DNA of 64,000 nt, taken from a virus. Positions 52,975-56,587 of the stretch are shown in pieces. The position numbers were made by a program, and so were the translations under genes. The stretch lies in IMG/VR virus record IMGVR_UViG_3300025660_000003, positions 77,697 to 141,696 of that record; one strand, 5' to 3'. Position 1 is the first letter of the stretch. Each line of letters opens with the position of its first letter. The notes beneath the pieces were generated by a model, which was not told where the DNA came from, searched no databases, and worked only from the letters and a program-made list of their open reading frames with translations.

Positions 52975-54034
52975 CCCGACCCAGGTGTTCCAGCAGTTCG
53001 CCGAGCAGGTGGCCGACGAGTTCCCGGAGCTACGGAAGATCCTCGACCAGGCCAAGAACGGCAGGATCAGCGAGACCGACGCCATGCGAGACCTGGCAGA
53101 GGTCATGCAGGGCAGCCCGGAGCTGAGCACCCGATTCCAGAAGGTCGCCATGGAGGCCCTGGCTCCTCTGCGGCCGGAGGACGAGCCACAGCCCCTCGAC
53201 CACGACGGTCTGATCATGCACAAGGAGCGGGGCCTCCCCCGGCTCAACCCGCTGGTCGAGGCCGCCCTGATCGAGCGTGCGCAGTTCGACAACGACATGC
53301 CGGAGCTGCGGACTGGTGGGTTGCCTCGCGGGGTAGCTCCTGCGGTGGCCGTGGACACGGACGTTCGTGACCCGGTGGCCCTGGGCCGGATGCTGACCGA
53401 CGCCTCTGACGAGGTGGCCGGGAAGATCGAGGCCAACGAGCCTGCCCGCCAGAAGCTCATCGGGGATGCCGCGACCTTGTCGCTGGTCGCGGCTGCGGGG
53501 ACAGCTCTGACGAAGCAGGCAGAGCGGGATCTGCTGTTCGACGGCAAGGACGACCAGGCGGATGTCCCGGTGTACCGCAGGGGGGCCGTACCAGCCCCTC
53601 TGGTGGTCGTGCAGCCCTCCGGCGCTGCCCTGCTGGCCCTGACGCCGGAGGAGCGCAAGCAGAGCGCCTGGACGTTCCTATCGACCACCCAGGGGCGTCG
53701 CTCTGCCGTCACTGGTCTGGTCCAGCTCATCGAGGCGAAGCTGACGGGCGAGGGCTTCGCCGTGACGGTGGAGAAGTTCGACCCCAAGGGTCAGGGCATC
53801 CTGGCGTACCACGAGTGGTCGGTGGGCATCGACGGGCCGGGTGCGATGCAGCCAGCCTTCAGCCTCATCGACATCGCGGCGGTGAGCATCGCCAAGGGGT
53901 TGACCCGGACGATGGGTGACCGGCGGGGTCGGGTGACCCTGGATGTCACGCCCATCAACACGGTGGACATCCGGTCGGTCGGCTGGGCGGGTCGGTTGCG
54001 GTCGGGGGACCCGATTCTTCCGGCGGCGGGGTAG
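52967..54034 (+). CDS. Hypothetical protein (355 aa)
   Basis: GGAGG RBS; codon bias. Confidence 0.65.
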   Translation: MTDPTQVFQQFAEQVADEFPELRKILDQAKNGRISETDAMRDLAEVMQGSPELSTRFQKVAMEALAPLRPEDEPQPLDHDGLIMHKERGLPRLNPLVEAALIERAQFDNDMPELRTGGLPRGVAPAVAVDTDVRDPVALGRMLTDASDEVAGKIEANEPARQKLIGDAATLSLVAAAGTALTKQAERDLLFDGKDDQADVPVYRRGAVPAPLVVVQPSGAALLALTPEERKQSAWTFLSTTQGRRSAVTGLVQLIEAKLTGEGFAVTVEKFDPKGQGILAYHEWSVGIDGPGAMQPAFSLIDIAAVSIAKGLTRTMGDRRGRVTLDVTPINTVDIRSVGWAGRLRSGDPILPAAG

Positions 54035-54041
54035 ACCAGGC

Positions 54042-54362
54042 ATGATCGACGACTTCATGTACGCCCGTGACTACGCCGAGGACAAGCAGGCGTGGGTCGT
54101 TGTTGTGGTCCCGCCTGAGGCGCTCAAGGACGCACAGAACGCGCTGGTGGCTGTGGCCAACGGGCACCAATTCAGCGGTCGGACACTCCGACTCCCCCGT
54201 GGGGGCTGCGTGTCCCTGGTCCCGGTGACCAACCAGAGCTTCCTGCCTGACGACCAGCCCTTCCACGTCATGTTCGCGGGGTGGGGTGGGAAGACGACCC
54301 AGGCACAGGAGATGGCACGGTGGCGGACAGCAGCAAGCAGGACGGTAAGCCGGGCCGCGTAA
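54042..54362 (+). CDS. Hypothetical protein (106 aa)
   Basis: Operon packing. Confidence 0.55.
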   Translation: MIDDFMYARDYAEDKQAWVVVVVPPEALKDAQNALVAVANGHQFSGRTLRLPRGGCVSLVPVTNQSFLPDDQPFHVMFAGWGGKTTQAQEMARWRTAASRTVSRAA

Positions 54363-54610
54363 GCGTCTGGACGTTCCTTATCCGGGGCGGTGAGCCCTTC
54401 GACCTCAAGATCAAGAACAACCTGAGCCCAGCCCTGAACCACGATGGTCGGATGACCCTCTGGAAGATGGTGGGTACTGATGATGAGGCCGCCAGCGTCG
54501 AGGCATGGGTCAAGGGACCCCTGATCGGTGCTCGGGTCGAACGTCACACAGAGGTCGAGGACGCAGAGATGCTGGCCATCCGAAATGAGCGTCTCGGTCG
54601 GGAGAGCTGA
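54320..54610 (+). CDS. Hypothetical protein (start uncertain)
   Basis: GC3-rich frame; AGGAG upstream of GTG 54320. Confidence 0.45.
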   Translation: MADSSKQDGKPGRVSVWTFLIRGGEPFDLKIKNNLSPALNHDGRMTLWKMVGTDDEAASVEAWVKGPLIGARVERHTEVEDAEMLAIRNERLGRES

Positions 54611-54620
54611 TGCCCATCTA

Positions 54621-54651
54621 CGATAACCCGCTTATGGGTCCCTCTGGGTAT
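54621..54651 (+). promoter_or_regulatory. Class-L motif CGAT-N6-CTTAT-N11-GGTAT at the GIY-YIG insertion junction
   Basis: Same spacing as the other copies; ends at the GIY-YIG ATG. Confidence 0.5.
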
Positions 54652-55243
54652 GGGCACTTGCGGAATCTATGAGATCAGGAACACCCGGACAGGCATGTCG
54701 TACCTCGGGTCCTCTCAAAACATCACCAAGCGATGGTGGAGGCACCGTAGGGACTTGAGGTTGGGGGTCCACCACAACCACCACCTCCAAAGGTCCTGGG
54801 AGAAGCATGGGGCTCAGTGCTTCACCTTCTCGGTGCTGCTGCCATGTCCGCCCGACTGCCTGCTAGCCAGGGAACAGGAGCTTCTCGACCAGGCCCCAGC
54901 GGGCAGCCTCTACAACCTGGCGTTTTTGGCTCAGGGGGGTACGAGGCTGGGTCATCGGAATACCCCAGAGCACAATGCTGCGATCAGTCGCGGGAACAAG
55001 GGGAAGCCTGCCTGGAACAAGGGGGGCAAAAACACCTGGGCGCAGGCGGCTGCGAGTTCACGGGTGGCCAGGTACTCGAACCAGATCGTTGCAGAGCACC
55101 TGGACGGTAGGGTGTTGAGCTTTTCCCACGCAGCCCAGGCTGCCCGAGAGATGGGCCTGGGAAGAACTTCGGTCAAGAATATCCTCAAGGGGTACAGCCA
55201 GAGAACTCGTTCGGGTTGGACCTTCCGGTACGAAGCGAGATAG
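54650..55243 (+). mobile_element. Free-standing GIY-YIG homing endonuclease
   Basis: CGIYEIRN..YLGSS..RW..H..HN..LQRSW.KHG..REQ..YN; NUMOD3-like and HTH C-terminus. Confidence 0.85.
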
Positions 55244-55252
55244 GAGATCCCC

Positions 55253-55486
55253 ATTCCAATTTACGAGTTCAAGTGCGACGACTGCGGGCACCGATTCGAG
55301 AAGATCCAGGGGCACACTCGCCCGAACCCACCGTGCCCCAACCCCTCAGGATCGCAGCCCCCCGAAGCCGTCCAGGTCCTCTTCGATGAGCCTCCGACGG
55401 CCTGCGGTGGCCCGTCTGAGAAGGTCATCAGCCAGAGCACGTTCCACCTCAAGGGCTCTGGCTGGGCGTCGGACGGCTACCAATAG
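55253..55486 (+). CDS. FmdB-family zinc-ribbon protein with ATT start codon (77 aa)
   Basis: AGGAG RBS then ATT CCA ATT TAC GAG TTC AAG TGC..: (M)PIYEFKCDDCGHRFE..CP..CGG..KVISQSTFHLKGSGWASDGY; missed by the ORF track. Confidence 0.8.
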   Translation: MPIYEFKCDDCGHRFEKIQGHTRPNPPCPNPSGSQPPEAVQVLFDEPPTACGGPSEKVISQSTFHLKGSGWASDGYQ

Positions 55487-55511
55487 CTCATCTATACGGC
55501 CCCACAGGTAC
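55481..55511 (+). promoter_or_regulatory. Class-L motif CAAT-N6-TCTAT-N11-GGTAC
   Basis: Same spacing; upstream of 55550. Confidence 0.5.
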
Positions 55512-55549
55512 CAGGGGAGATCCCCCTTACAACCTGTGGAGACACCACG

Positions 55550-56587
55550 ATGAGCACTCGAACGGCAGCACAGACGAAGAAGGGCCTGCGGAAGAAGCTG
55601 ATCCGCCTGGCACACGACCACCCTGAGAAGCGGGCCTCCGTCTTCCCCATGCTGACGAAGCTGGGCGTGGACGTGAGCAAGCTGGCCGCTCCCAAGACCG
55701 CTGCTGCTGCGCGGGTCGCCGCCATGCTGGAGAAGCTGGCCGCCGACGAGAGCGATCCCAAGAAGGCCGCGAAGCTGCTCGCCCGGCTGGCGAAGGGCGA
55801 CAAGATGCCGCCGGAGCTGCTGGAGAAGTTCGAGAAGAAGGACGACAAGAAGGCCAGCGTCGGCAAGGTCGCCGTCAAGCCGGAGACAGAGGACTTCACG
55901 AAGTGGGTGATGTCCACGCAGTCGCCGATGTCCGCGAGCGAGGTCGAGAGCTTCGTGAGCCGGACGCTGGGCATCAAGACCAGCCCCCCGCAGAAGGGCC
56001 GGAGTGGTCCGCGCTTCCAGAAGGGCGACCAGGTCCTCGTCTGCGCCGCCAAGCACAAGGGCTCCGGCCTGGGCACCTACAAGCTGTACGACCAGAAGGT
56101 CGGCACCTGTGTCGGTGCTGAGGGCGACGACCTCATGCTGGCCATCAAGGGCGAGCCCGCCCCCATCCGGTTCGAGCAGGGCATGAAGGCCCGTGGCGTC
56201 GGCGTCTACAAGTACAGCGCGGCCTACGCCATCAAGGGCTCGGCCAAGGTCGAGATGATCTACCACGCGGGCGGCAAGCCCACGAAGGATGCGATCATCG
56301 TCGTGGACGCCTACCTCGGTCGCGGACGCGGCACCGAGAAGCGGCAGGGGACCTACTACACCGGCCACGTCGTCATGGCTTCGGTCGGCAAGAATGGCTA
56401 CTACTTCCGGGGCTACCCCCAGCAGCGGATGGACATCGACGCCAAGACCTGTGCGGGCGATGGCTTCCGCCCCCGCACGTTCAACCCGAAGGTGGGCAAG
56501 GTCTTCTACATGGGCGTGCTCGGACACCGCCCGAGGAACTGGAAGGACGACCTGGAGAAGCTCTCGGCGGCTTCAGAGGCAAGCTGA
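55550..56587 (+). CDS. Basic hypothetical protein (345 aa), possibly virion-associated
   Basis: GGAG RBS; preceded by a class-L motif and followed by a terminator hairpin. Confidence 0.65.
   Translation: MSTRTAAQTKKGLRKKLIRLAHDHPEKRASVFPMLTKLGVDVSKLAAPKTAAAARVAAMLEKLAADESDPKKAAKLLARLAKGDKMPPELLEKFEKKDDKKASVGKVAVKPETEDFTKWVMSTQSPMSASEVESFVSRTLGIKTSPPQKGRSGPRFQKGDQVLVCAAKHKGSGLGTYKLYDQKVGTCVGAEGDDLMLAIKGEPAPIRFEQGMKARGVGVYKYSAAYAIKGSAKVEMIYHAGGKPTKDAIIVVDAYLGRGRGTEKRQGTYYTGHVVMASVGKNGYYFRGYPQQRMDIDAKTCAGDGFRPRTFNPKVGKVFYMGVLGHRPRNWKDDLEKLSAASEAS

Follow-up and report, generated by a model that had tools for sequence, protein, structure and literature searches.

How does a homing endonuclease gene come to live inside the coding sequence of another gene, and leave that gene usable, when there is neither an intron nor an intein to take it out again? 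The question is raised by a 64,000-nucleotide stretch of viral DNA (the window in what follows; 65% GC), which corresponds to positions 77,697 to 141,696 of IMG/VR virus record IMGVR_UViG_3300025660_000003 (G000:C1:77697-141696). The source is a 141.7-kb virus contig to which CheckV assigns a completeness of 27%; hence, the virus is a large uncultured phage. In the window, a gene for a GIY-YIG endonuclease separates an orphaned gene start from a second, rebuilt start, which opens a gene for a zinc-ribbon protein of the FmdB family. We compared this locus with related phage contigs, which are designated by L-numbers (L005, L006 and so on), and found that the relatives lacking the endonuclease have a single contiguous FmdB gene, and that the carriers consistently differ from them in the initiation codon of FmdB. 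These observations point to a free-standing cassette that targets the first codons of FmdB and provides a substitute start for the gene that it severs.

Structure of the locus

The gene preceding the cassette (54281-54610; this and all other features described here are on the + strand) encodes a protein of 109 residues, whose homologues are encoded directly before FmdB in all syntenic relatives, and its 3' end holds the GGAG that served the original FmdB start. Its TGA stop (54608-54610) overlaps the ATG at 54610, with which the orphaned original start, ATGCCCATCTACGA (54610-54623), begins. The orphan is a start typical of the FmdB family (MPIY-), after which its frame enters unrelated sequence and reaches a stop at 54672; the orphan ATG now heads an upstream ORF of 20 codons (54610-54672), which extends across the endonuclease ATG in a different frame. 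A leader of 26 nt (54624-54649) follows, and then the endonuclease gene of 197 codons (54650-55243), the TAG of which (55241-55243) overlaps an AGGAG Shine-Dalgarno sequence (SD; 55242-55246). After a spacer of 6 nt, ATT CCA ATT TAC GAG at 55253 opens a frame of 77 codons (55253-55486) that ends in TAG at 55484-55486 and encodes an FmdB-type zinc ribbon (Zn_ribbon_8). The first 14 bases of this frame constitute the rebuilt start, ATTCCAATTTACGA (55253-55266), which has ATT as its putative initiation codon and equals the orphan at 11 of 14 positions, with all three mismatches falling at third codon positions.

The first-pass annotation of the window had reported an orphaned start coupled to the preceding gene by TGATG, an AGGAG followed by an ATT-initiated and recoded copy of the first codons, and an intact zinc-ribbon gene behind that copy. 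What it described at this locus was confirmed in every detail. The same orphan is likewise found in L005, L021, L023, L049 and L037.

Empty sites in relatives without the endonuclease

Homologues of the 345-residue protein encoded downstream of FmdB led to endonuclease-free contigs with the same gene order as the window, namely the genes for a 365-residue and a 109-residue protein followed by FmdB and the gene for the 345-residue protein. These relatives have one contiguous FmdB gene with an ATG or GTG start directly after the 109-residue gene, for example ATGCCCATCTACGAGTACAAG in L006 and GTGCCCATCTACGAGTTCCGG in L007, which read in context ATGCCCATCTACGAGTAC... and GTGCCCATCTACGAGTTC..., respectively. 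The contiguous allele that had been predicted for endonuclease-free relatives therefore exists, and it supports the earlier proposal that the endonuclease was inserted without any splicing element and restored the 5' end of the gene it entered.

Compared with L006 and L007, the window has an insertion of 643 bp after base 14 of FmdB (54624-55266), which on account of the repeat can equally be drawn as 54610-55252. It is composed of the 26-nt leader, the 594-nt endonuclease ORF, a 9-nt spacer with the SD and the 14-nt copy. With the start of L006 the orphan shares all 14 bases, and the rebuilt copy 11 of 14. Since the orphan sits where the endonuclease-free relatives start FmdB and matches L006 throughout, its resemblance to an FmdB start is not due to chance. 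The ATT is likewise no artifact of sequencing, as this codon is also ATT or ATC in independently assembled contigs. The locus thus combines an endonuclease, a diverged duplicate of the severed gene end and an orphaned native end that matches the empty relatives, which are the features of a gene-end replacement.

The initiation codon separates carrier from empty alleles

In all 12 carrier lineages the rebuilt start is a weak one: ATT in four (the window, L005, L023/68 and L069), ATC in five (L021, L049/41, L025, L050 and L071) and TTG in three (L037, L051 and L070). All 11 empty lineages, in contrast, start FmdB with either ATG (four: L006, L027, L032 and L034) or GTG (seven: L007, L028, L029, L033, L036, L038 and L043). 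The nominal Fisher p for this difference is 7e-7, a value that overstates the independence of the lineages, which are phylogenetically related. The initiation codon is the sole constant difference between carrier and empty alleles. The changes in it all run from purine to pyrimidine, affecting position 3 in ATT and ATC and position 1 in TTG, and GTG, although a strong start, occurs in empty alleles and never in carriers. While the wobble base of codon 2 takes all four bases among the carriers, position 3 of their AT-type starts is never G. Even the close relatives L050 (ATC) and L051 (TTG) are separated by a path of point changes that passes through ATG or a non-start codon, and ATG is not seen.

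A scan of the window for an SD followed by an ATY or CTG start returned 21 candidates, which are mostly noise in DNA of this GC content. On an AT-rich phage contig, L175 (5480-5630; the same in L227), there is an FmdB gene with an ATT start and no adjacent endonuclease, and about 110 nt upstream of it lies a broken FmdB-like start (ATGCCACTACTTGA, then TACGAGTTTAAGTGT). This layout could be a scar left after the loss of such a cassette.

An endonuclease clade tied to FmdB starts

The layout of orphan, endonuclease, SD and weak start recurs in relatives whose endonuclease is 43-89% identical to that of the window. Full-length relatives at 43-52% identity are found in non-syntenic phage contexts (L025/26, L050, L051/52, L069, L070 and L071/72), and in each of these the endonuclease stop is followed, at a distance of a few bases, by an FmdB-like gene. 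GIY-YIG genes of more remote relationship, in which the similarity is confined to the catalytic domain, are not accompanied by FmdB. Because the clade sits at FmdB starts in unrelated contexts, its target must be situated in the conserved 5' part of the FmdB reading frame and not in the upstream context.

These distant carriers also reveal variations on the theme. For instance, the orphan of L071 reads ATG CCG ATC TAC ACC TAC and meets a stop two codons on, and its rebuilt copy reads ATC CCG ACC TAC ACC TAC; here the junction follows codon 6, such that the insertion point differs from that of the window and the design is equal. In L069, L070 and L025 the endonuclease ORF appears to begin at the captured FmdB start itself. 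The orphan is decayed in L023 and absent in L050/51, and FmdB is intact in both.

Two further observations concern individual members of the clade. L037 (2030-2100) has tandem orphan-like starts before the endonuclease, GTGCCGATGTACGAG followed by TAG and then ATGCCACTGTACGG, which may be the trace of two successive invasions. L025 (1-1427), whose endonuclease is 43% identical to that of the window, has in addition a gene for a Volactin-family protein that gives weak Hint/intein matches, which suggests another selfish element in that genome.

Conflict between endonuclease and flanking-gene trees

In a tree of the 365-residue flank gene, the window and L005 are nested (94/94) among nine endonuclease-free phages, with the other carriers outside, and an AU test rejects the monophyly of the carriers (p 0.0026). 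A tree of three concatenated flank genes from 18 phages requires at least three changes of carrier state. Moreover, carrier L049 is sister to the empty L036 in the flank tree (99/99), and yet its endonuclease groups with that of the distant L021 (100/99) in the endonuclease tree, where a host-like grouping is rejected by the AU test (p 0.007). In genomes whose flanking proteins share only 26-44% identity, the endonucleases are 63-68% identical. As the endonuclease tree conflicts with the flank-gene tree, the endonuclease must move. Presence/absence polymorphism at one site among related genomes and a conflict between gene and host trees, as expected of a homing endonuclease of the I-TevI/Seg type, are both found at this locus.

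From about residue 100 onward, the L049 copy (2507-2936, with the fragment L041) is disrupted by an internal deletion and a frameshift, as would befit a gene in the decay phase of the usual cycle of homing. The FmdB gene behind this decaying endonuclease still starts with ATC.

The endonuclease is predicted to be a modular enzyme of the I-TevI type

The N-terminal part of the window's endonuclease matches the GIY-YIG domain (Pfam PF01541, E 2.8e-6, 28 bits against a cut-off of 22.6) and the catalytic domain of I-TevI (PDB 1MK0, E 3.6e-12). We built an AlphaFold model from eight members of the clade, in which confidence is high for the N-terminal domain, low at about residues 92-132, which correspond to a linker, and high again at 144-196. 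Foldseek searches with the predicted structure recovered I-TevI 1LN0 for the N-terminal domain (E 9e-7, TM 0.77 by target) and the DNA-binding region of I-HmuI 1U3E for the C-terminal domain (E 4.5e-4); a NUMOD-like Pfam match at residues 153-193, of the kind seen in I-HmuI, lies under the curated cut-off (19.8 against 27 bits). The predicted build is hence modular: a catalytic domain like that of I-TevI is connected through a disordered linker to a NUMOD-like DNA-binding domain at the C-terminus. The catalytic-type residues Y7, Y18, R28, H32, H41, E75 and N89 are invariant in the eight clade members, and the comparison with the 89%-identical copy in L005 gives a dN/dS of 0.15. Judged by these sequence features, the endonuclease is intact and under constraint.

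Megablast detected no similarity between the region and the phages in GenBank, and a search of GenBank phage proteins with the endonuclease recovered relatives at no more than 41% identity. Accordingly, no cultured phage carries this endonuclease clade.

FmdB in the carriers

The protein behind the rebuilt start is a regular member of its family (PF09723, 43.5 bits against a cut-off of 34.4, with profile positions 2-31 at residues 2-30): it has the N-terminal MPxYxYxCxxCG motif, the second Cys pair and the small size, and its sole departure is the ATT start. The 77-codon frame of the window contains no ATG, GTG or TTG at all, and the six carriers that were checked have no canonical in-frame start either upstream or before the first CxxC knuckle. 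In an alignment with 18 relatives, the carriers keep the open frame, the four Cys and a C-terminal F-LKG-GW-DGY motif, and in each of the 10 carrier lineages whose contig spans the whole gene, FmdB is open and has all Cys ligands. This retention indicates that FmdB is still in use. An SD lies 4-11 nt before the rebuilt start in 11 of the 12 carrier alleles. It is not weaker than in the empty alleles: the longest match is 6.2 against 4.8 nt (p 0.017), and the duplex energy is equal.

Gene callers skip or truncate FmdB in every carrier genome inspected, from which it follows that host genes of this kind are under-annotated. In L021 (3597-3928) FmdB is uncalled, and in L023 (3534-3956) it is called from an internal ATG with loss of the first zinc knuckle. 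The central part of FmdB in the window (55275-55453) is only 50-62% identical to its counterpart in L005 (7338-7516), whereas the surroundings, including the endonuclease, are 85-95% identical. The divergent part could be a swapped or fast-evolving loop between the zinc knuckles, or else a recombination or co-conversion tract. This central loop is equally variable among the empty alleles.

A probable homing cassette that supplies a substitute start

Taken together, we think it probable that the element is a free-standing GIY-YIG cassette of the I-TevI type, which targets the first codons of FmdB, supplies a substitute start and spreads by homing. The cassette would sever FmdB after base 14, requiring no intron or intein, and would bring its own SD, located in the last codons of the endonuclease, along with a start codon and a duplicate of the codons that open the gene. 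FmdB would be translated from the ATT at 55253, probably aided by ribosomes terminating 10 nt upstream. The original start would stay upstream as an orphan heading a short ORF that runs into the endonuclease start or, in some lineages, would head the endonuclease ORF itself. Horizontal spread would take place when the endonuclease cuts an empty FmdB start and the cassette is copied in during repair. The duplication could have originated from a cut near TACGA/G, which on the invasion of a new context would leave homology to the donor on the FmdB side only. If copying from the donor (gene start, SD, endonuclease and leader) then proceeded from one end, and its product was joined illegitimately to the left side of the break, an orphan and a donor-derived rebuilt start would be left behind. 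Once established, the whole unit could be carried among syntenic phages by two-sided homing.

In such a cassette, the rebuilt copy and the downstream gene would together recreate the conserved 5' coding sequence, and with it the element's own target, unless a recognised base differs. The first-pass annotation had looked for this difference in the recoded wobble positions. This does not hold, given that L021 keeps CCC ATC and that the empty alleles vary at the same positions. The loss of an I-TevI-like CNNNG nick motif (CTACG, codons 3-5), which is absent in eight of 12 carriers and present in seven of 11 empty alleles, is suggestive but not clean. We propose instead that the initiation codon is read by the endonuclease as part of its recognition site, such that a start other than ATG or GTG would protect the carrier allele from cleavage. 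There is only one codon for methionine, and the start codon would be the one changed because it is the only codon that can be altered in the DNA without a change in the protein. We place self-immunity through the start codon, our preferred reading and one drawn from the comparison of alleles, at somewhat under an even chance. The strong SD beside the weak start looks like compensation for a forced weak codon rather than down-tuning.

Several observations weigh against this reading. Apart from the relatedness of the lineages, TTG retains the TG of ATG and GTG, and hence immunity would need position 1 to be read as well as position 3. Moreover, ATT, ATC and TTG together form the weak class of starts, AUG and GUG having given 6-8 times more expression than UUG and AUU in reporters tested in E. 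coli (PMC3592434); the data would accordingly fit selection for low output as well. The FmdB genes of L175, L193 and L244 start with ATT or ATC and have no endonuclease alongside. Finally, the body of FmdB has diverged between the window and L005 (50-62% nucleotide identity), and its dN/dS in the alignable blocks is only moderately low (0.38, from few sites).

Among the alternatives that grant FmdB a working weak start, one would have this start selected to lower or gate FmdB translation behind the endonuclease, including by way of the initiation factor IF3, with no relation to the nuclease target. The split between weak (ATT, ATC, TTG) and strong (ATG, GTG) starts does coincide with that between carriers and empty alleles, but we regard this as unlikely: the carriers keep a strong SD, when a weaker one would be a simpler route to less output, and there is no apparent reason for making less FmdB only in the presence of the endonuclease. 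As for IF3, the product of FmdB has no link to initiation factors, leaving feedback of the infC type without a basis; the first-pass suggestion of IF3-type control as at infC found no support, the SD being good and no weaker than in the empty alleles. Slightly less likely again is a frozen accident, in which an ancestral ATY start was dragged along by co-conversion and was good enough to persist. In its favor, the start codon adjoins the cassette, at 4-11 nt from the endonuclease gene, and L049 resembles its empty sister L036 in the codons that follow the ATC, as though nothing but the start had arrived with the cassette. This is difficult to reconcile with a codon 2 whose wobble base has cycled through four bases as the AT-type starts stayed clear of G at position 3, with the TTG of three lineages, and with L071, which has a different junction and a native-like copy and still starts with ATC; furthermore, a single change to ATG should be favored if expression alone mattered.

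The remaining alternatives dispense with a restarted gene altogether. That FmdB is dead in the carriers, with the ATT as the scar of a lost start, might be argued from the want of a canonical start, the failures of the gene callers and the fast divergence of the central part. We consider this very improbable and rejected the pseudogene reading: the frame is open to the conserved C-terminus, the Cys ligands are retained in 10 complete carrier lineages across deep divergence, a good SD lies at the right distance in 11 of 12 carriers, and the central loop is as variable in the empty alleles. It is scarcely credible that the endonuclease and FmdB are made as one protein by read-through of the TAG. 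The two do share a reading frame, with the TAG and three codons between them in the window and a distance of 603 nt in the window, L005 and L021. However, the intervening stop varies among lineages (TAG, TGA, TAA), the frames differ in L023 and the ORFs overlap in L050, which excludes a fusion of this kind, and the family motif of FmdB is strictly N-terminal (profile positions 2-31). TAG also functions as a genuine stop in this phage: it terminates FmdB itself, at the position occupied by TGA or TAA in the relatives. We give as little credence to removal of the insert as an intron, an intein or by ribosomal bypass, which would join the orphan ATG to the body of the gene, even though the orphan is intact, well placed and preceded by the old GGAG. 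The endonuclease ORF takes up 594 of the 643 nt, and the remaining 49 nt leave no room for an intron core, as the first-pass annotation had noted. We found no group I ribozyme core (P3-P9) flanking the ORF and no Hint domain in Pfam searches. An Rfam ribozyme search of 53500-56500 gave no match at E up to 1, and the RNA folds are no better than those of shuffled sequences. Furthermore, FmdB remains intact where the orphan is decayed (L023) or absent (L050/51).

If the homing cassette with start-codon immunity is the correct reading, a selfish element dictates the start-codon choice of its host gene, and rare ATT, ATC and TTG starts beside homing endonucleases, or left behind by them, would be a general footprint of this conflict. 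The strict link between carriage and ATT, ATC or TTG in any case bears on whether the self-immunity of a nuclease can drive start-codon choice, and non-canonical starts beside endonuclease genes merit a second look in annotation.

Endonuclease expression and neighboring elements

The endonuclease ATG has no SD, as had been observed before. A motif that the first-pass annotation had placed across the left junction, CGAT-N6-CTTAT-N11-GGTA, is indeed present at 54621-50, though its statistics are modest: the window has five matches against 1.6 expected, a number reached by two of 100 shuffles. The CTTAT box within the leader (54631-35) lies 14 nt before the endonuclease ATG, and the same distance is found in L005, L021, L049, L037 and L071, which has TATAAT. 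The TAT box may be a promoter that gives the endonuclease transcript a very short leader, making it near-leaderless. The old FmdB start, via the 20-codon ORF overlapping the endonuclease ATG, could also drive translation of the endonuclease. Folding of the RNA that surrounds the endonuclease ATG and the rebuilt start gave z-scores of +0.6 to -1.3 and no conserved hairpin.

Outside the cassette, a TCTATA-N10-GGTA element (55491-55510) precedes the neighboring gene for the 345-residue protein (55550-56587). It is conserved before this gene in all relatives inspected (L005 at ~7570, L006 at ~3920, L007 at ~1980, L021, and L033 at ~1935) and is a good candidate for a promoter of this phage group. 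The window holds five copies of a looser form of the motif, all of them on the + strand. In L033 (1900-3000), FmdB and the 345-residue gene are separated by an additional gene of about 1 kb, and in L034 (3204-3475) and L036 (1333-1820) 270-490 nt of inserted sequence part the N-terminal from the C-terminal portion of the homologue of the latter.

Comparison with known systems

The locus illustrates how a homing endonuclease may live inside a protein-coding sequence with neither intron nor intein: the cassette would hijack the translation start of FmdB for its own side of the junction and give the gene a spare one. Our literature searches found no description of a phage endonuclease that rebuilds the 5' end of a gene, and no link between endonuclease carriage and start-codon choice. 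An AUU start behind an SD and near the stop of the preceding cistron is known from infC and pcnB of E. coli (PMC3592434). Unlike in those genes, there is no autoregulatory logic here: the start varies between ATT, ATC and TTG and correlates with a selfish element and not with gene function. With the IF3-autoregulated infC the locus shares only the AUU codon, and no sequence feature speaks for feedback.

The closest counterparts in family and modular build are the free-standing Seg endonucleases of T4-like phages, known for intronless homing, and the intron-encoded I-TevI. Like the Seg genes, the cassette needs no intron, is sporadic among related phages and presumably spreads by double-strand-break repair. 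In known free-standing homing endonucleases, immunity of the carrier comes from sequence differences at the target, and the known Seg and Mob genes are either intergenic or divide a gene into two functional parts, as in Aeh1 nrdA (PMC2988022). The endonuclease of the window differs from these in lying inside a coding sequence, for which it brings a replacement translation start and first codons, and in the systematic difference of its carrier alleles in the initiation codon. The ShiLan-type hidden HNH endonucleases inserted in mycobacteriophage methylase genes (PMC11855218) likewise reside within a phage coding sequence as neither intron nor intein. Their insert, however, forms an in-frame extra loop of the host protein, with the nuclease out of frame, whereas the host gene in the window is cut and restarted.

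In the replacement of a gene end, the nearest parallels come from fungi. Mitochondrial mORFs carry a foreign gene end, as in atp6 of Allomyces macrogynus and in atp6, atp9, cox2 and nad3 of Glomus (PMC3630166), and they too combine an endonuclease ORF with a diverged duplicate of the severed end and a native orphan that matches the endonuclease-free relatives. In these the 3' end is replaced, often with the endonuclease in phase with the host gene, while in the window it is the 5' end; the phage cassette must hence supply an SD and a start codon, and its duplicate extends over only 14-18 nt. The WHO elements of Torulaspora and Lachancea yeasts replace one end of FBA1 per integration, splice-free and with allele-specific cleavage (PMC7282813). 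They resemble the cassette in end-replacing, splice-free homing, and differ from it in affecting the 3' end, in their intein-derived nuclear endonuclease and in an allele specificity established by experiment, where that of the phage cassette is deduced from the alleles. The design of a spare gene end is thus known for 3' ends in fungi and yeasts, and the enzyme that accompanies it here at a 5' end is an ordinary member of the I-TevI/Seg type.

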